Origin: a virus
Lineage: Duplodnaviria > Caudoviricetes
Strand: one strand, 5' to 3'
Virus record (IMG/VR): IMGVR_UViG_3300020577_003313
Length of the DNA: 64,000 bases
The notes below the pieces were generated by a model. It ran no database searches. It was given only the letters and a program-made list of their open reading frames with translations, and had not been told where the DNA came from. Both the position numbers and the translations under genes were made by a program. Below, piece by piece: positions 5,752 through 63,858 of this stretch; positions within the stretch are counted from its first letter, which is position 1; the number at the start of each line of letters is the position of its first letter.

Positions 5752-8703
5752 TTAAATGGAGCACGAGTCATTCGTGCAAAATCTTTCGCCTTTGCTCTCT
5801 TCTTTACCATCTCTCAGGTCTAATTCTCCTAGAGAATTAACATATTCATCATACTCTTGTTCTGTACAAGTTTGATACGGAGCCTGAGGATAGTTGTGAT
5901 TATCCAATGGTAGGAAAGACAGAGTCTTTACATAAGGAGCGAAATATTCAATCGCGCCTAATAGATCTTTCACCTCTTCAGGTTTAAAAGTTATCGTGCA
6001 AGACACTGAGTTATCCGACCAATAATATTGTAGTTCTTTTACTAGAGTAAGCTGTTCCCATAGAGAGATGTCATACTTGCTCTTAGTAAAGTTACTTTCC
6101 CTTACAGGGAAGTAAACTACCATTGTATTCTTGTCCGTTAAAGAAGGTTCTATTCTATACCTTGCTGCTGCTAGTTTCTTTAGCAGTGGACTATTTGCGG
6201 CAACTCTAATAGTTCTCATATAGAACTCACTGTGGGTACAGTGTACACCAGGAGTCGCGCCTGCTAGTAAGCTAATAGTTCCACTAGGCTTAATAGTAGT
6301 AATCTTAAGTGATGTAGGTACGCCTAACCATCTAGAATAGATGGTATCCCAGTAATCTACAGTCTCGTAACCCTTGTCACAGAACTCAGATAGATACTTC
6401 TGAATACCAAATTTCTTAATAGCTTGCTGAATACCTGACTGAGAAGTTCCAATGCGACGATTACGGAGCATTACTTGATTAGTAGCTTCGCAGTGAGTAG
6501 GCACAAGAGTTACACTCTTCGCATACAGATACGCATACTTTAGCGTCTCGTGATAGTCTTCTGAGTTATCATGATTAGCCGGGAAAGTCTCTACTAAGCA
6601 GCACATCTCTTTGTCGTGTAGAGTCATCTCCGCGCACGGATTTACTCCAACACAATCGTCATACTTCGGATGCTTAATTTCTCTTCTTCCATCCTTAACT
6701 CGTCCAAAATGTTGGCAGTTTTCCAGTAGAATAATTCCTGGCTCACCATTCTTAGTGATGTTACCAATAATTCTGCTGAAGTTTGAATCAGGATTTGCAG
6801 TAACAGAGTTGTTACTCATCCATCTTCTATCAGCACATTCGTCTGGATACTTTGTATAGTCTTTCATTTCTATGAACTTAGTATCTTCGATACGACCCAT
6901 AGAAAGTTCGGCGCTTCTTCTTACATTACCAGCTACAACAAACTTACCGATATAATTCATGATATCGGTAATACCTACAGAATCTAATATCTTACCATCA
7001 TAGCTATCTAATAGTTTTGTGATGTTTGCGTGCCCTTCCCTTAAGGGGGCAGGACCGCTAGCTGTTCCGCCAAAGCCTTTAATAGGCGCACCTGGTCCTC
7101 TTATTTGATCATAATTGAATATGAACCATTCTTTTCTATCTTTCTGTATGTAATTATTTAGTAACAGTCTAATAGATTCTACCCAGCCTTCTCTTGAATC
7201 TGGTATAACGTAAGTAGTTAGAGGTATAGCTACATTGTAATCAGTAGGACACTTACTTATTTGTACCTTACCAGCGCCGAGTGTATCATATCCTACACCA
7301 ACACCAAGCATTAGCATGTCACAGGCCCATGCAAATGGGCCAGCAAAGTCCTTATCTATATCCTTAGTGCTAACAGTCGCACAATTAGATGTTAGTATAT
7401 TATCAGCAAGAGTAAATTTTTGATATCCTGGAACAGTTGCACAATATACTATCTCTTTTCTATCTGTTTTCTCTACAGATATAACAGTCCAATATTGTAA
7501 TTTTACTTCTGGATTATCTAAAAATCTTTCTCTGTGCGAATCTATTAAAAAGAAATCTTCAGTAAGTGCATTTCTATGCAAAACTATGGACCATAACCTA
7601 GAAGGTTTGTTAGTTAAGTTAGATATTCTATCTTCTTTAGTTGGTCCATATATAGGAATACCTAAAACTGAACAAAGTTCTCTTACCTTTAAGATATTAT
7701 TTTCATTTGTACTCTCTATAGAACAGCATCCAGACTTAGATACTGTACCATCAGCAGCAAAATATCCTGCTAAGAATCCATACAGATAAGATTTATTTTC
7801 TTCTAAAGATGGAAATTCTTTAAAATAATTTGGTAGTCCGACTACTCTAATATCCTGACCTGCCTTCTGGCGGTTACAATTATTAAAATAATCTAATAGC
7901 TGTAAGTTCTTTTCTCCACACAAAGTAACTCCGGCGGTAGCTCTTAAAGAAGCAGAAGAAAGGTTACCGTCTCCATATGTAATGCCATGGGCTATTCCAA
8001 ATGCAGAAGGGGTAATATCTTTTACTCCTTGTCCAAAGCAATATTGTAGTCTATGTATTCCCGGTCTTAATTCTACTGTAGTGAATCTAGAATAACCTTT
8101 ACTTCTATATTCCTGTCTTCTATCTTTAGCAAACCAGCCATGGTCTGCTGTGGCAAATATTTCCTTTCTTAATCCAGAACGACTAAGAGTTATTTTATAT
8201 AGTTCTTGGGATCCAAATGCTGTAATTGGAGCTTTTACCCACTTGCCGCCTTCTGTTAAAAGTGTAGGCTCAGTTCCTTGTAACTGAGATATTTGTTTAA
8301 TGCCTTCTGAAGTAATAACTTCAGTCTCGGCAGCAAAGCAGTTATTTAGTGCAGCAGAGCCAATCCTATCTACAATAGGAGTGCCCATAATCCACAGTCC
8401 TCTGCCAGGAGGTAGGAACTTAAAGTTCCACATCCTCTCGAACATAGCCTGTGCAGATTTTTGAGCTTTAGCAGCATCCCAAGGTAGATGAGAATTTTTA
8501 CAGTGTCTCATCTGGATAGTGAAAGAACCTTCTACACAACGCTTAATCGTGTCAAAAAATTCTTCACTAGTTCCATCTTCTTTGAGTCTTGAGTAGGTTC
8601 TCTTATAGGTAAAGTAACTGAGGGTTCCAAACCCCCAAGATGGTTGCTTACCTTGATATTTTCTTAGAAAATTTTCAGTTAATTTGAATCTAGTTTCGGT
8701 CAT
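5752..8703 (-). CDS. nrdJ: Class II (B12-dependent, monomeric type) ribonucleotide reductase containing an intein
   Basis: FLPPGRGLW, MLGVGVG, GNVRRSA, GVNPCAE, TTIKPSGTISLL, C-terminal CTNDSC. Confidence 0.93.
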   Translation of the reverse strand: MTETRFKLTENFLRKYQGKQPSWGFGTLSYFTYKRTYSRLKEDGTSEEFFDTIKRCVEGSFTIQMRHCKNSHLPWDAAKAQKSAQAMFERMWNFKFLPPGRGLWIMGTPIVDRIGSAALNNCFAAETEVITSEGIKQISQLQGTEPTLLTEGGKWVKAPITAFGSQELYKITLSRSGLRKEIFATADHGWFAKDRRQEYRSKGYSRFTTVELRPGIHRLQYCFGQGVKDITPSAFGIAHGITYGDGNLSSASLRATAGVTLCGEKNLQLLDYFNNCNRQKAGQDIRVVGLPNYFKEFPSLEENKSYLYGFLAGYFAADGTVSKSGCCSIESTNENNILKVRELCSVLGIPIYGPTKEDRISNLTNKPSRLWSIVLHRNALTEDFFLIDSHRERFLDNPEVKLQYWTVISVEKTDRKEIVYCATVPGYQKFTLADNILTSNCATVSTKDIDKDFAGPFAWACDMLMLGVGVGYDTLGAGKVQISKCPTDYNVAIPLTTYVIPDSREGWVESIRLLLNNYIQKDRKEWFIFNYDQIRGPGAPIKGFGGTASGPAPLREGHANITKLLDSYDGKILDSVGITDIMNYIGKFVVAGNVRRSAELSMGRIEDTKFIEMKDYTKYPDECADRRWMSNNSVTANPDSNFSRIIGNITKNGEPGIILLENCQHFGRVKDGRREIKHPKYDDCVGVNPCAEMTLHDKEMCCLVETFPANHDNSEDYHETLKYAYLYAKSVTLVPTHCEATNQVMLRNRRIGTSQSGIQQAIKKFGIQKYLSEFCDKGYETVDYWDTIYSRWLGVPTSLKITTIKPSGTISLLAGATPGVHCTHSEFYMRTIRVAANSPLLKKLAAARYRIEPSLTDKNTMVVYFPVRESNFTKSKYDISLWEQLTLVKELQYYWSDNSVSCTITFKPEEVKDLLGAIEYFAPYVKTLSFLPLDNHNYPQAPYQTCTEQEYDEYVNSLGELDLRDGKEESKGERFCTNDSCSI
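7384..8340 (-). mobile_element. Intein (319 aa) with LAGLIDADG endonuclease
   Basis: ALNN|CFAAET... and ...ADNILTSN|CAT junctions; ATADHGW block B; FLAGYFAADG motif. Confidence 0.92.
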
Positions 8704-48491: not shown

Positions 48492-48606
48492 TGGTGGGTT
48501 GAACGTCACCACTCCTAGTCCCAGTATTAAGAGATGGGCCTCTATCTAGATGCGAATAATACGCTTAATGTTGGTCAAGAGAAGCTAGTAACGTGATTAG
48601 GAACCC
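48492..48606 (-). ncRNA. Putative 115-nt CCA-ended non-tRNA RNA
   Basis: GGGTT/AACCC+ACCA ends, TCAC/GTGA and CTAG/CTAG helices, three internal hairpins, no T or anticodon arm. Confidence 0.45.
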
Positions 48607-48649
48607 AGCTTCACCGTCCGTAGTTCTCCTACGGCCCTATTTTAAGCAT

Positions 48650-48734
48650 TGGTGGGAATGGCAGGACTCGAACCTGCGTAAGTCAGAGACGGTGGATTTA
48701 CAGTCCACTGGAATTGCCGCTATCCCACATTCCC
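48650..48734 (-). tRNA. tRNA-Tyr(GUA)
   Basis: CT-GTA-AA, long variable arm, ACCA. Confidence 0.9.
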
Positions 48735-51948: not shown

Positions 51949-53073
51949 CTAGTTGCCGAGGTTCTTCAGCGACTGTCCAGTGAAGTACAGCACCTCTGTA
52001 CCTGCAACTAGCTTGCGGTTCCAAGAAGTCGATCTGACATAGACCGTCCACTTGGCACTAAATGCTGGATTCAGCTTGATAGTCCCACCAGCTGGGATAC
52101 CGAGCAGATCACGTGCGTGTTCCCCTGCATATAGGGAACCAGTTGAGTTTTCCTTGATGACAAGATCCTTGAAATCCTGAACGGTTTCAGCCTTAGTAAG
52201 CTGGTAGAAGCCTCTACCAACTTCATAAGTGACACCCTTCTTTCTGAAGAAATCAGAAATTACAAGGTTGTCATTGGCTTTCACAAAGAAAGCCATAAAC
52301 TGGTTACTGACATTAGTCAGATTTCTCTTTACATCAGTCTTAGTCAGGTCTTCGACCTGAGGAATGAAGAAAGATCTATTGCTAAAGCTATCGTTAGCAT
52401 AGCAAGCATATGTAGCTTGGATGCCTCTAGTGACATTCTTGGCCACTTCAGAGTATCCCTTCTTAGACTGTTCCCATTCGGTAATACAGCCTTTTGGAAT
52501 ACCGAAGTTAGCCGCAGTATCTGTAGCTCCAGGAGGAACACAGAAAGCAAACGTCCACTTATCAGTAGCAAGGGCAGTCAAGATTGCATTCTTGCAATCT
52601 TCAGTAGTGTTCTTAGAGCAATTCTCTTGACCATCAGTCAAGACAATCAGCATGTTAGCATCGTTCTTGGAACTATGCTTTTCGATATGCTGGATGCTCT
52701 CAACAACTGCATCACGAAGCGGCGTTCCGCCATCAGTGATATAGCTACTTTCATCGACCTCGCCGAGGTCCTTGATATTCTCGAACTGAGAAAGTTCGAT
52801 GTTAGCTCCGGCCTTCCAAGTCAATCCTCTGCCAACTTCAACTGTGTTGAATGTGCCAATTGCAAGAAGAGTTTCCTTGAGACCAGGAATCTTCTTCTCG
52901 GAGTTTTCCTTGATAGCTTGGAGCTGAGTATTCACAGCATTCAGGGTATCCTTAGTCCAAGATCTCATGGAACCCGATGCATCAATCATGATTACAACAT
53001 TAACGTTGTAAGGAGCATTCTTTGCCTTCTTCTTAAAGGCGATAGTCTTATTCTTCTTCTTAGTCTTGATCAT
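51949..53073 (-). CDS. vWA-domain protein with C-terminal GRGFYQLTK...STS.NRKL domain
   Basis: DASGS, GGTPLRDA, LTDGQEN. Confidence 0.8.
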   Translation of the reverse strand: MIKTKKKNKTIAFKKKAKNAPYNVNVVIMIDASGSMRSWTKDTLNAVNTQLQAIKENSEKKIPGLKETLLAIGTFNTVEVGRGLTWKAGANIELSQFENIKDLGEVDESSYITDGGTPLRDAVVESIQHIEKHSSKNDANMLIVLTDGQENCSKNTTEDCKNAILTALATDKWTFAFCVPPGATDTAANFGIPKGCITEWEQSKKGYSEVAKNVTRGIQATYACYANDSFSNRSFFIPQVEDLTKTDVKRNLTNVSNQFMAFFVKANDNLVISDFFRKKGVTYEVGRGFYQLTKAETVQDFKDLVIKENSTGSLYAGEHARDLLGIPAGGTIKLNPAFSAKWTVYVRSTSWNRKLVAGTEVLYFTGQSLKNLGN

Positions 53074-53122
53074 TGTTACCTTAGCGCAAAGTTATTTCCT
53101 AAAAGTATTTAGGAAAAAAGTA

Positions 53123-53252
53123 TCCTGAATAAAAATTGATAAGTCGTTTACGCGTTCTACCAATTGAACTACGACCGCATGGTGCGGTCGGTAGGACTCG
53201 AACCTACAACCTCGATCTCCAAAAGATGTAGACCTATCGGAGCATTTCAGGA
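53123..53252 (-). ncRNA. YrlA-type Y RNA with circularly permuted tRNA-like domain (130 nt)
   Basis: Order T arm (GTAGG-TTCGAGT-CCTAC), closed acceptor CGACCGC-ACCAT-GCGGTCG, D arm (GTTC-AATTGGTA-GAAC) inside a terminal stem; near Ro60. Confidence 0.85.
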
Positions 53253-53253
53253 A

Positions 53254-53314
53254 TGGGCGGGTGTGCTAGATTTAAACTAGCATAGCTAAGCTGTTTTGAT
53301 TAAACTAACACCCG
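53254..53314 (-). ncRNA. 61-nt anticodon-less mini-tRNA
   Basis: CGGGTGT/ACACCCG+CCCA, D-like and T-like arms, anticodon arm reduced to AGCTTAGCT. Confidence 0.6.
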
Positions 53315-53321
53315 AAAAAAA

Positions 53322-53437
53322 ACTCAGATAAAAACGTTGAGATGATTGCCTCCCCGGAACCGTCCTAGGCATGCACGAGTCGAACGTGCTCAGGGTTCTA
53401 TTCTAAGTAAAATGTAATCCCAACAAGCATTCTGAGT
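53322..53437 (-). ncRNA. Y-RNA-like gene with T arm (116 nt)
   Basis: ACTCAGA/TCTGAGT stem, ATGCT/TTTTTA loop, TACAT, GCACG-TTCGACT-CGTGC; 19 nt after the Ro60 stop. Confidence 0.75.
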
Positions 53438-53456
53438 ATACTCAATACGATTCTGA

Positions 53457-55115
53457 TTACTCAGAATCGTTGTCTTGTGAATTGGAAGCCTGGATAGATG
53501 TCTTGATGAGATCCACCCAGCTAACTCCCTTTGGCCTAGACACGAACGCCGACATGACATTGAAGATTACATTGCTGAAACCTCCAATATTCATCACATC
53601 ATCCGATGTCGAAGCCTGTGACATTGTGTTTGGGCTCAAGTCAATGAGGACAAGCTTCTTGTCCCCAGACTTGTTATAAGCTCTCCACAATTCTTGTGTC
53701 TTCGTTTGAGCAGCTCTAAGACCTGCGGATACAGTTGCACTGTACCGACTGTAGTAGTCAGCCCAAGATTCGTTATCACTGATAACAATGACGATGTCAT
53801 AGTTATCGTTCTTGATGTGCTCTAGACAGCACGAAACGCTCGTGCCACCTGATTGAGACTTGCTTTCAACGAACGCAGTGATTTCACCAAGTCTCTTGGT
53901 GCTATCAATCGCGCTGTTCCTACTAGCACTATCGAACTTGATGTTAGTATCAAAAATATGAAGATCAGCGTTACCACTGTTCTTCTTATAGATACCAGCA
54001 CCAATCAAGCAAGCTGCCTGTAGGCAGCTCATAGAGCTAGTAGCACCTTCTCTATTTCCAGTTACAGAAGTGCCCATAGAGCCACTACCGTCGATGAAGA
54101 TTGCAATCTTACCCTTCATCTCTGGAATGTTCTTGACCGTAAGGTCAAGCGCATCCTCAAGAGCGTTCTGAATTGCCTTCTCCTGGACAGTGTTGTGCTT
54201 GATCGCAGTGTAGATTTGGTATGGGAACACGCGCGAACGTGCTACCATAGTCTCATCTTTGAGACGATCTGCAATTACCTTGACCATCTTCTTGTCCTTA
54301 AGGACATTATGACGATCAAATGTATTGAGATTCATTCTCGTGAAATGCCAATTACCATTGGCAGCAAGCTGCAACCAATGATTATCGGTCAGTTCTTGAC
54401 CAGTGATTAGCTGGAAATCAACAACTGGGATCGTGCGCGTCTTGTCCTTCTTCCACTCTTCAAATTCCTTGAAGATGCTAGGAAGATCGTCGTAGCGGTA
54501 AGTCTTCTTTGAATCAGTATTCCCCGCCGGGTATCCCATGATCCACTTGAACGCAGCCTGACGGGCTGCATCCTTGGGCTTTGGATGAGCAAGTCTGATG
54601 ATATCCTTCAACGAAGGATCATTACCAACAGTTGCGTTAAGCAACTGCTGATCCGTCATCCTATTGAGATGAGCAGCAACAGAGTTGGAAATGGTAGAGC
54701 CGAGGCTCTTTCTACCAACCTTACCAGATCGAACCATCTGGATAAGATTACGAATCATCTTCGCATTATTGATAACGCGAGGATAAAATTGACGGAACAG
54801 AGACGGATCTCTCACAGAGAGAATTGCCATAAGCAAAGCTGGCATATCCTTCATGAAGCCAAAGCTTCTCGAATAGACAGCCATATTTGCCAAGGTTACA
54901 TCAGTGCATCCCAAGGACAGCTCAATTACCTTATCCAGCTGCTCTTCAGCAGTCGAATAGAAAGTATTGTTAAAGCAGCCAGTTACAGCTAGCTGAGCCA
55001 GAGCCTCTTCCTTGCCCTTATCATAGCTAAGGCCGCCGCTCTTGTTGACGACAACTACAGCGCGCGTCGCCTTCTTAGCCTTCTTCTTGCTACCAAATAA
55101 ATTCTTGTTAGACAT
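53457..55115 (-). CDS. rsr: Ro60/Rsr TROVE + vWA RNA-binding protein
   Basis: LAQLAVTGCFNNTFY, MKDMPALL, RSGKVGRKSLG, DIIRLAHPKP, RMNLNTF, VFPYQ, DGSGSM, ISDNESW; start at MSNKNLF. Confidence 0.92.
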   Translation of the reverse strand: MSNKNLFGSKKKAKKATRAVVVVNKSGGLSYDKGKEEALAQLAVTGCFNNTFYSTAEEQLDKVIELSLGCTDVTLANMAVYSRSFGFMKDMPALLMAILSVRDPSLFRQFYPRVINNAKMIRNLIQMVRSGKVGRKSLGSTISNSVAAHLNRMTDQQLLNATVGNDPSLKDIIRLAHPKPKDAARQAAFKWIMGYPAGNTDSKKTYRYDDLPSIFKEFEEWKKDKTRTIPVVDFQLITGQELTDNHWLQLAANGNWHFTRMNLNTFDRHNVLKDKKMVKVIADRLKDETMVARSRVFPYQIYTAIKHNTVQEKAIQNALEDALDLTVKNIPEMKGKIAIFIDGSGSMGTSVTGNREGATSSMSCLQAACLIGAGIYKKNSGNADLHIFDTNIKFDSASRNSAIDSTKRLGEITAFVESKSQSGGTSVSCCLEHIKNDNYDIVIVISDNESWADYYSRYSATVSAGLRAAQTKTQELWRAYNKSGDKKLVLIDLSPNTMSQASTSDDVMNIGGFSNVIFNVMSAFVSRPKGVSWVDLIKTSIQASNSQDNDSE

Positions 55116-55165
55116 CTCAATGTCCTTGAGTAAATTGTTAGGAACTATACGAACCAGCCCGTCAA

Positions 55166-55507
55166 TCAGACGGGCGGAGTATCTTTGTAGATCGTCTTGT
55201 TGGCACGCTCGATCCACTCTTGAGCCTCACGCAAGGCCGCGATGAGCACCAGCACATTGTTTTCGTTGGCCGATGCCGACCGACCCCAGGTGCCATCCTT
55301 CTTCATGAAGGCTCGCTCGAAGGTGACGGAGAAGAAATTCTTCCCGTCCTTCGTGGGATTGGTCCAGATCGCCACACGGAATGGTGACATACGAACCACG
55401 TGCGTGGGCTTCGTGCTCCGTTCCATAGGAACGGGGATCTGATTGACCTGAACTTGGGTTTGGGTCTTGGGAGCAGAACGACGAGACTTATTGAGAGAAA
55501 CAGTCAT
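55166..55507 (-). CDS. Small PC4-like putative ssDNA-binding protein
   Basis: VAIWTN..KDG...SVTFERAF..KDG.W. Confidence 0.45.
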   Translation of the reverse strand: MTVSLNKSRRSAPKTQTQVQVNQIPVPMERSTKPTHVVRMSPFRVAIWTNPTKDGKNFFSVTFERAFMKKDGTWGRSASANENNVLVLIAALREAQEWIERANKTIYKDTPPV

Positions 55508-60747: not shown

Positions 60748-61068
60748 TCATGTAGACTTCATTCCTACACGATTGTAGATGGATTGAATTGCTTGTTCCA
60801 TACGAGCGCGCCCTGCTGGATTGTCCGAATGGACAATCAACTCAGGCGCCCCTTCGTGCCAGATGTAGCTCTTGTGAACTTGTTCTTCCAGTCTACAGAT
60901 TACATCGTAGCCATTGAAACTAACATCATCCCCAAAATCGTGATCGAAAGAAATCAGATCAGCGTGCTTGGCGAGATGGTAGAACATGCCCATATCAGTC
61001 TTTGGACGAAAAAGCAGGAAATCGCTCTCTGGAATAGAGCGAACATCATCCAAGAACAACTTGAGCAT
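60748..61068 (-). CDS. Cyclic-phosphate-processing receiver-like domain protein
   Basis: LFLDDVR, ISFDHDFG, NGYD, VHSDNPAGR. Confidence 0.75.
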   Translation of the reverse strand: MLKLFLDDVRSIPESDFLLFRPKTDMGMFYHLAKHADLISFDHDFGDDVSFNGYDVICRLEEQVHKSYIWHEGAPELIVHSDNPAGRARMEQAIQSIYNRVGMKST

Positions 61069-61831: not shown

Positions 61832-61859
61832 TTTTTTCCTATTGAGAGAAGAAGTCACT

Positions 61860-63289
61860 GCCTGGTGTTAAATGAGGACCAGCTTTCGTACCCAGTCGTA
61901 GCTCTCTTACGACTTTATTCCAAGCAGCAACATTGTGAGTAAGAAGCTGCAAGATTTTACTTGCATCTACGCAGAGAACATCTGGTAAAAAGCCAGTATT
62001 ATTTTATCTGCGGCGGTTTAGTTAACCTAAGCTTCTAGAATATGGATGGGGCTATAGGATGCTCCCTAGACGCTATTCCCCAAAACGTCATCTCAGGTCC
62101 AGTTACGCTAAAGACTGACCGCTACTGAACTGGAACTAGCGGGTCTATGATCCAGCCACATTTTTTTGCTTCGTATTAGCCCCATGGATTACGTCCATGG
62201 ACCTAGCTAACACTAGACAGAGAAAACGTAGCCAAACTACAATATGCTAGCTGTCACGGTTTTTTGCTAGCTTCCCCAGAGACCACCTCTTGGTGGCTTA
62301 CCGAACGATCTGATCCATTGGGGATAAAAGAACAATTGTCCTGGTGTTATGGTCCCAAGACTATCTCGCCATTCATAGCACGTCCGGTTTACCGGCATGG
62401 TGTATTTACCAAGTCCCTGGGCATGCCACATTACTGTGGACAATGCTTACCTACTTGATAAGCTAGGACTCTCACCTTAGCAAGCAAGATCAACCCATTT
62501 GTTTTTGTCCAACGGACCGATAAGCAGCTAGTTAGGCTGCCCCCATCATCCGCTCTGTTCGCTTTGACGGACAAAATTAAGAGCCTATCGTCTCATGCAC
62601 TACATGAGGATCTCGACTCAACAGTCCTGCTAATCCTATCCAGTGTCACCACTGGCTTATACTAGCAGTTATCCCGCCCTTAGTTAGGCTAAGGCTTTAG
62701 GGTACACCTTTTTTTATTCCGAACATTTCGGATCGGATATCCTAGGCCCTTACGGGCCAAGTATGTTGGTGGATTCTTTATGAGACCACTCGGACTTGAT
62801 ACCACCTACACACCGAGCTTCTTTGGTCTTAGCTTTTGTTCAGATCCCATACCGTTTATTGTCTATTAAACTTACACGGCTTTTCTGGTATGGTAGCCAG
62901 CTGGTCTAAACAAGAGCTTCTCTCATTTTCACTTCGGGTTGAAGGCCCGCGCGTGTTGAGAGTTCTGGTATGGGTTTGTCTCCGCAGGTTTAGTCTGTAA
63001 GCACTCCCATCGTGCTCACAGCCACTAACGTGTCACTAGGACTCCGTATTAGTTTTTCCATGAAGGAAGGAAAAGCTCCGTATTGGCACAAGCGACATTG
63101 CTGTCGTGAGACTTTTCTTGCTACTAGTATATTGGGTTTAAACCAATATGTTAGCAAAGAATTTGTGTCTCGGCACTTAGAGCCTTACCTCAATTAAATA
63201 AAAGACAACGCCTCATACTAATGAGGCCCGATGTTTCTGTGCTTTTATAGTCGGCACTTCATCAGTTATCACGACTCAGTGCTGTTGAA
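61860..63289 (-). ncRNA. Putative very large structured RNA(s), about 1.4 kb
   Basis: No credible ORF in a gene-dense genome; many hairpins, with GNRA loops reading on the minus strand. Confidence 0.6.
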
Positions 63290-63580
63290 TCAGCACTTAT
63301 CGAGGCTAGAAGCCTCGTACCTGTAGACTAGCTGACACCTCTGCGCAGTCATGCTACAGAGATCATCGAAGAGCTGCTTCGTGTGAGCAGTGAGATGAGA
63401 ATCATCGAGGAAGCTTTCTTGAGACTCCCCGCGCACAGCGCGGAGAATCCCAAGCTTACCAACTCGATTGACGAACTGAGCTGTCACAATGACAGTCTTC
63501 AATTCTTCCTCTTCGAAGATCGCCAGCCCTGCTACCGAGTCCTTGCTCGGTAGATTGGTGACAATCAACTGTGCATGCAT
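63290..63580 (-). CDS. Hypothetical protein
   Basis: Start at MHAQLIV overlapping the stop of the upstream gene. Confidence 0.5.
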   Translation of the reverse strand: MHAQLIVTNLPSKDSVAGLAIFEEEELKTVIVTAQFVNRVGKLGILRAVRGESQESFLDDSHLTAHTKQLFDDLCSMTAQRCQLVYRYEASSLDKC

Positions 63581-63858
63581 CAGTTGTCGTCCTCGTCCTT
63601 GCCCGCGATGATCGCGTTCGCCTTCTCTTCCAGCTTGCTGATGGCGTCCTGATACTCCTTCTCGCGGCGGCGACACTTGCGGATCTCGCTCACCATGGCG
63701 TTGATCTGACTCGCCACCGAGCGCAGCTTGTTCTCGATGAGCAGCGCCTTCTCCTGCTGCATCTTCTGCTTGAGGGCCTCGACGGCCGCGCTGCTGACCG
63801 CCTCGTTCTGCTTGTTGAGGAGATTGGAGAGGAACTTGCCGAAGTCTTGGTTCTTCAT
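63580..63858 (-). CDS. Coiled-coil hypothetical protein, high GC
   Basis: Heptad-like sequence; GC-rich third codon positions. Confidence 0.55.
   Translation of the reverse strand: MKNQDFGKFLSNLLNKQNEAVSSAAVEALKQKMQQEKALLIENKLRSVASQINAMVSEIRKCRRREKEYQDAISKLEEKANAIIAGKDEDDN

Follow-up and report, generated by a model that had tools for sequence, protein, structure and literature searches.

A candidate large modular structured RNA, outside the Rfam families, in a tRNA-rich phage

Bacteria and phages seldom carry very large structured non-coding RNAs, and the few classes described, among them GOLLD, ROOL and OLE, have been found to build unexpected RNA-only assemblies, with functions that are still unknown. 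GOLLD is a large, ornate RNA of phages and prophages that often lies near tRNA islands; its well-conserved part is accompanied by a 5' part of lower conservation and by a variable linker, and its function is unknown (PMC12286853). ROOL is a phage-borne, protein-free ornate RNA that also lies near tRNA islands and holds many hairpins and multi-way junctions (PMC12286853). Here we describe a locus that can be set beside both: an element of ~1430 nt on the minus strand (61846-63275) of a 64,000-nucleotide stretch of Caudoviricetes DNA, the window of this analysis (IMG/VR record IMGVR_UViG_3300020577_003313). The element has no open reading frame (ORF) and no Rfam match, aligns to a gene-free stretch of a related contig (L003) and, like GOLLD and ROOL, is located in a phage near a tRNA island, with phage genes all around it. 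A preliminary description made from the letters alone had proposed a large RNA here, possibly of a new class. Our comparison upholds a part of that proposal, in that the region appears to be a conserved, strand-specific, structured non-coding RNA locus outside the Rfam families; the notion of one giant RNA fared less well, as the covarying helices are all local and one motif of the locus is self-standing. A further class, unrelated to those known and longer still, would give more material on which assembly and function of such RNAs can be tested.

Coding capacity is absent from the element by every measure applied. Its longest start-to-stop ORF in any frame is at most 64 amino acids (aa), there are 19-36 stop codons, of all three kinds, in every one of the six frames, and recoding any single stop as sense opened no long frame, in agreement with the earlier statement that no credible ORF is found here. 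Measured as sequence free of stop-to-stop frames of at least 70 codons, the element is the largest ORF-free stretch of the window, as had also been noticed (837 + 267 nt against 297 nt for the next). Comparison with a relative extends this picture. For the product of the downstream HAD phosphatase gene, 5.8 billion clusters contain a single close relative, P0002 (54% identical), which is encoded on the Logan contigs L002-L004. On L003, no gene is called in a 1.39-kb gap between a 94-aa gene and a 132-aa ORF preceding HAD, and this gap aligns with the minus strand of the window, giving an L003 element of ~1270 nt (L003:1365-2638). The 94-aa gene (L003:1063-1344) shares 52% aa identity with the conserved 92-aa coiled-coil gene that lies upstream of the element in the window (63583-63858, minus strand), and in both L002 and L003 the element is placed between coiled-coil and HAD neighbours as it is in the window.

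Between window and L003, nucleotide identity reaches 77% and 79% in two core blocks (62370-62830 and 62047-62241) and 74% in the 3' domain, compared with 57% in the 5' third and 60% in the HAD coding sequence. Conservation is also among the highest in the linkers between domains, which include an invariant run of 38 nt. Core mismatches fall evenly across the three codon phases (37/34/33), without codon periodicity, whereas those of HAD do not (47/36/94), and the open stretches of the element lie in different frames in the two sequences. The element is therefore non-coding, and yet conserved above the adjacent genes. A protein-coding gene, whether standard or recoded, was rejected on the stops in all frames, the differently framed open stretches of L003 and the even mismatch phases. 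One plus-strand frame across the RNA core (62207-62866) is open for 208 of 220 codons (83 + 67 + 58) and is partly called as a protein (P0122) in a relative; the frame is not kept in L003, and as a gene it was dismissed as spurious, since it is not conserved there.

It was by translating such a spurious frame of the core, and looking for the translation among predicted proteins, that a third lineage was found, a 512-nt ENA contig (L006) that is 97% identical to the window and carries P0122; a second search with a spurious core translation returned only P0122 and L006 again. Further relatives were not recovered by the other searches. A blastn search with the element gave no match among 50,697 phage records or 72,556 plasmids, and exact-pattern scans with five conserved 21-27-mers gave 0 matches in IMG/VR and 0 in GTDB genomes; the single match in JGI metagenomes comes from an unrelated bacterium, within a gene for a glycoside hydrolase, and was set aside as chance. 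Among the loci of HAD homologues of at most 45% identity (80 from IMG/VR and 4 from Logan/NCBI), none carries the element by nhmmer or by either covariance model, and these loci are mostly gene-packed. IMG/VR searches with single flanking proteins gave no matches, and the 92-aa neighbour protein retrieved only itself; a paralogous relationship between this protein and a coiled-coil gene located ahead of a different structured RNA at 44 kb was considered and rejected.

The clearest evidence for RNA structure is base-pair covariation. One full sequence was folded alone and its pairs were scored in the other, with a control in which the 3' partner of each pair was slid by 1-3 positions. Doubly changed pairs still paired at 32:13, against 22:59 when slid (Fisher p = 2e-6), and the reciprocal fold gave 33:20 against 32:51 (p = 0.008). 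Within the cores alone, doubly changed pairs were kept at 15:2 and 16:4, and double changes were 3.8x commoner at paired than at slid positions; a substitution-shuffle control set 41 observed against 18.4 +/- 3.9. This support attaches to particular helices rather than to the full predicted fold. Two or more compensatory pairs are found in the helices 62627-62668 (with its inner GUGA hairpin), 62762-62812, 62503-62576 and 62518-62545, and further in 62338-62361, 62155-62232 and the hairpin 63210-63227.

The individual hairpins named in the preliminary description were all located where it had placed them. On the minus strand these are the GNRA hairpins CCACA-GTAA-TGTGG (62426-39), CCAGTG-GTGA-CACTGG (62640-55), GGCCC-GTAA-GGGCC (62745-58) and CGACA-GCAA-TGTCG (63093-106), together with the T-loop-like AGG-TGAGAGT-CCT (62465-77), the 7-bp closure 61942-48/62030-36 and the AT-rich stem 63115-63160. 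All four GNRA hairpins are kept in L003, two of them with the tetraloop retained and the stem changed (GGCCC/GGGCC to GGCUC/GAGCC, and CCAGUG/CACUGG to CUGGUG/CAUCAG). GNRA-capped hairpins number four in the window and six in L003 in the minus sense and zero in the plus sense; the window count of four compares with ~1.0 expected from shuffles, with other window tiles reaching up to six. The two-sequence consensus energy is -278.5 kcal/mol for the minus strand and -224.7 kcal/mol for the plus strand, and single-sequence minimum free energies favour the minus strand likewise (-481 against -452 and -447 against -396). The minus strand, which is that of the surrounding genes, is therefore assigned as sense from the polarity of the GNRA hairpins and from the folding energies. 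Taken as a single sequence the element exceeds chance only weakly in structure, and it is the comparison with a relative that makes the structure clear.

Read from its 5' end on the minus strand, the element begins with a conserved motif (63233-63275) composed of CUGAUGA, a 4-bp covarying stem (63257-54/63242-39) and GAAAC, which is nearly unchanged between the window and L003 and has one compensatory pair (UA to GC). It is followed by a 7-bp hairpin (63210-63227) and a U-rich tract. This hairpin, terminator-like in a scan and with 3 compensatory pairs relative to L003, may serve the upstream genes as an intrinsic terminator or else belong to the RNA as a stable 5' hairpin. In the 5' region proper (62920-63209), conservation falls to 57% and the hairpins are kept: the GCAA hairpin at 63093-63106, with 2 compensatory pairs, the AT-rich hairpin, and a hairpin at 62920-62962 with the loop CCUUCAA, whose stem 62949-46/62938-35 has 1. 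An optional hairpin module with a 13-bp closing stem (62831-62918) is present in the window only, where, compared with L003, 88 nt are cleanly inserted and the sequence on either side is invariant. Core 1 (62494-62830), the most conserved block, holds the GUAA hairpin 62745-58, the 38-nt invariant run, a nested hairpin with a GUGA loop (62627-62668) and a multibranch domain (62494-62583), and its helices have 2-3 compensatory pairs each.

Core 1 leads into a 128-nt four-way junction, modelled as R2 (62363-62490), in which the T-loop-like hairpin, the GUAA hairpin 62426-39 and an invariant bulged hairpin are arranged. Its 41 pairs, with 97.5% of cells paired, include 11 compensatory pairs, compared with 0-1 in every slid version and with 0 of 500 shuffles as high. 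A variable linker (62242-62362) follows, with a hairpin at 62338-62361 that has 3 compensatory pairs, and here three-way alignments could be made: an 80-nt module (62242-62322) is common to the window and L006 and absent in L003, and a 105-nt module is present in L006 and L003 and missing from the window between 62336 and 62335. Core 2 (62048-62241) consists of a long hairpin (62155-62232) and the hairpins 62092-62139, 62069-62089 and 62048-62066, with 2-3 compensatory changes and several that preserve pairing as G-U. A second optional module, a 103-nt multibranch domain (61944-62046) closed by the 7-bp helix noted above and already seen in the preliminary description, is again found only in the window and is absent in L003. 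Across the three lineages, entire hairpin modules are gained or lost between invariant flanks.

The element ends with R1, an 88-nt three-way junction (61846-61935, minus strand; covariance-model score 88.9 bits) with a 12-bp closing stem, a purine-rich hairpin loop (GAGAG in the window, GGAGAA in L003) and a pyrimidine tail. Over three copies the closing stem has 7 compensatory pairs and 0 of its 12 pairs broken, and for R1 as a whole 11 of 22 pairs are compensated. R1 is tandemly duplicated in L003 (2553-2638 and 2640-2727), and likewise in L002 and L004; in the second L003 copy the closing stem is almost wholly rewritten with pairing retained. The terminal R1 stops 15 nt before the HAD start codon in the window and 11 nt before that of the 132-aa orphan ORF in L003. 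A second, full-length copy lies elsewhere in the window (48554-48651, minus strand; cmsearch 36.2 bits, E = 2e-7), where it immediately follows tRNA-Tyr and precedes tRNA-Gly by 66 nt, with the three-way fold and an identical GUAGGAGAACUAC hairpin. R1 seems to recur in this phage lineage as a small structured RNA, itself without an Rfam family. For R2, no paralogue was found in the window, and nhmmer found none for the rest of the element.

Stretches of 2.2 kb, 0.5 kb and 0.16 kb of the window, together with L003, were compared with the 4227 families of Rfam 15, and no relevant match was obtained at the gathering score or at E <= 10. GOLLD (RF01998) was rejected on this basis for the 2.2-kb and 0.5-kb stretches and L003, and so was ROOL (RF03087), neither covariance model matching at E <= 10. 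A group II intron was likewise rejected, with no Intron_gpII or group-II-D1D4 match, an unsplit HAD gene and flanking ORFs that vary by lineage, as was a group I intron, with no Intron_gpI match and no split gene. No rRNA or tmRNA was found in the same search. RNase P RNA was excluded as no RNaseP model matched the 531-nt core; short words resembling those of E. coli M1 RNA (GCUUAUCGGUC, AGUCC) are present in the element in the wrong order. The preliminary description had found no signature of group I or group II introns, rRNA, tmRNA or RNase P, which the models confirm. With GOLLD and ROOL included among the 4227 families that did not match, 'new class' is a fair description.

The genomic setting is that of a large phage. 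The proteins of the window sit on a 176,613-bp JGI/IMG contig, almost all genes of the window are on the minus strand, and 13 tRNA matches lie at 41.6-57.9 kb of it. Other genes of the window encode a family A DNA polymerase, a Ro60/TROVE protein and NAPRTase; the Ro60/TROVE protein has a vWA domain and adjoins a second vWA protein within the tRNA island (51949-55217, minus strand), and a class II (B12-dependent) ribonucleotide reductase (5752-8703, minus strand) contains an intein with a LAGLIDADG endonuclease domain. Directly downstream of the element is the HAD phosphatase gene (P0001, 61373-61831, minus strand), of the 'Swiss army knife' RNA-repair family (HAD-SAK; Pfam PF18143, E = 4e-31) and covered end to end by the Pfam model. 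Two genes downstream is a cyclic-phosphate-processing receiver (cREC) gene (60748-61068, minus strand; Pfam PF20274, E = 1e-15), which is also downstream in L002. Members of both families are predicted to process RNA ends in phage RNA repair (PMC7824862). A 17-kb Logan contig of the same phage (L001, SRR32380193) starts at window position ~61852, 21 nt before the HAD start codon, exactly where the element ends on its 3' side; this hints at variation among strains, or at a break in coverage, at that boundary. On the other side, between the coiled-coil gene and the element, is an orphan 96-aa ORF (63293-63580, minus strand) that forms a one-member cluster without a family and is absent in L003. 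Its G+C content of 53-59% is above that of its surroundings, and its region has a folding z of -5.0 over 315 nt (-7.6 in one 300-nt tile) and a predicted hairpin of ~17 bp; it may be an inserted element or a further RNA instead of a gene.

We favour the interpretation that the locus is the gene for an undescribed large, modular, structured RNA of the minus strand that acts in trans as a scaffold or decoy. That it is transcribed, forms one molecule, has a tertiary fold and works in trans is what we infer, and we hold this interpretation to be about as probable as its negation. In such a model the RNA would be transcribed from the minus strand, co-directionally with all neighbouring genes, and would fold into around a dozen local domains, including the GNRA hairpins, the four-way junction, the long bulged hairpins and the 3' three-way junction. 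Highly conserved linkers would join these domains, lineage-specific optional hairpin modules would decorate them, and linkers and tetraloops could knit them into one compact, stable RNA. During infection this RNA might then act in trans, as a scaffold or decoy in a phage programme centred on RNA that would comprise the tRNA island, Ro60 and the enzymes that heal RNA ends. In a stronger form, which is possible and in our view doubtful, all of the 1.3-1.4 kb would belong to a single molecule folded into a definite three-dimensional architecture; this molecule would be an RNA-only assembly like those of GOLLD and ROOL, or else be coupled to HAD-SAK and cREC as their scaffold or substrate. The ends of such a molecule might be made by its own hammerhead-like 5' motif, and it would, if real, be the largest non-ribosomal structured RNA known from a phage.

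Several results weigh against the favoured interpretation. No covarying helix spans more than 130 nt, and the predictions for the two sequences agree on no helix spanning more than 300 nt; a long-range helix joining core 1 and core 2 was considered and rejected, with one compensatory pair and near-zero probability in the single-sequence ensembles. One-sided pair changes were kept no better than in the slid control, and for this reason much of the 1.4-kb minimum-energy fold is unsupported. Minus-strand folding z-scores over 300 nt (-1.1 to -5.2) are matched by the flanking genes, and the comparison set consists of two divergent sequences and one 512-nt fragment. A terminator-like hairpin lies inside the 5' part of the element, and no clear promoter for it was found, with 9-mer enrichment in intergenic regions giving only tRNA T-arm words. 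R1, finally, is an independent motif with a copy outside the element, which speaks for a composite locus.

The main rival to a single trans-acting RNA, rather unlikely in our estimation, is a polycistronic array of separate small structured RNAs that would be co-transcribed and then cut, like the adjacent tRNA island with its non-tRNA RNAs; the 88-nt and 128-nt junctions and the long hairpins would be among its members. The locality of the covarying helices, the gain and loss of modules as units, and the behaviour of R1, tandem in L003 and recurring alone right after tRNA-Tyr, all favour such an array. The linkers between domains, with their 38-nt invariant run, are too conserved for mere spacers, however; R1 is alone in having a paralogue, and neither internal terminators nor tRNA-like punctuation were found between 63200 and 61970. 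Other readings are less likely than an array. A very long cis-acting leader of the HAD-SAK/cREC operon, sensing for example damaged RNA or tRNA ends and controlling the downstream genes, could explain why in both phages the element runs directly up to the first gene downstream, with the terminal R1 so close to the start codon, why no terminator intervenes between RNA and HAD, and why the purine-rich R1 loop is complementary to its own pyrimidine tail, and the genes so controlled would be predicted RNA-end phosphoesterases (PMC7824862). Its improbability lies in the identity of that first gene, which is HAD in the window and an unrelated 132-aa ORF in L003, and in the tRNA-island copy of R1, which precedes a tRNA rather than an ORF. 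To our knowledge, moreover, all known leaders and riboswitches are far shorter than 1.3 kb.

A catalytic or mobile RNA, in the form of an ORF-less self-splicing intron or of self-cleavage at the 5' motif with ends handled by the neighbouring enzymes, was also weighed and is very improbable. The core of the 5' motif looks like a hammerhead or a tandem-GA (kink-turn-like) motif. As in a type I hammerhead, CUGAUGA, a covarying stem II, GAAA, a stem III hairpin and GUC/UUC occur in order (63262-63205), the type of RNA end left by self-cleavage is one on which cREC and HAD-SAK act (PMC7824862), and the flanking ORFs vary between lineages. Against this, the Rfam hammerhead models gave no match, including on the 161-nt stretch and L003, nor did any group I, group II or other ribozyme model in either sequence at E <= 10; by inspection, stem I is weak in the window and position 10.1-11.1 is an A-A mismatch; and the flanking genes are complete, with no split exons. 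Least probable of all, with only a slight chance of being correct, is an element acting at the level of DNA, such as a replication origin, packaging site or recombination hot spot with DNA hairpins. Watson-Crick compensation preserves hairpins on both strands, the plus strand equals the minus in double changes, and the contig break of the same phage falls at the edge of the element, all of which such an element would accommodate; yet GNRA loops and folding energy are asymmetric between strands, the conserved linkers are non-palindromic, the element contains no direct repeats or iterons, and cumulative GC skew shows no turn.

Set against known systems, the locus has likenesses at two scales. 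Its two well-supported small motifs, the 128-nt four-way and 88-nt three-way junctions, suit covariance-model searches and structural work. Phage T4 species 1 and 2 RNAs are stable non-tRNA RNAs embedded in phage tRNA clusters, and the R1 copy after tRNA-Tyr resembles such small stable RNAs, co-transcribed and processed with phage tRNAs; the likeness is by position alone, and R1 differs from them in that it also sits just before start codons. At the scale of the whole locus, the candidate large RNA shares with ROOL a phage-borne location near a tRNA island and a wealth of hairpins and multi-way junctions, although it is about twice as long and pseudoknots are not established from two sequences. 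With GOLLD it shares a layout, in which a 5' part of 57% identity accompanies cores of 77-79% and a variable linker with optional modules, and differs from it in being ~1.3-1.4 kb rather than ~800 nt, in lying 3.9 kb from the nearest tRNA and in being flanked by RNA-repair-type genes. The likeness to GOLLD and ROOL is only one of kind and not of family membership: that of a large ornate RNA in a tRNA-rich phage, here one that also encodes Ro60 and RNA-repair genes.

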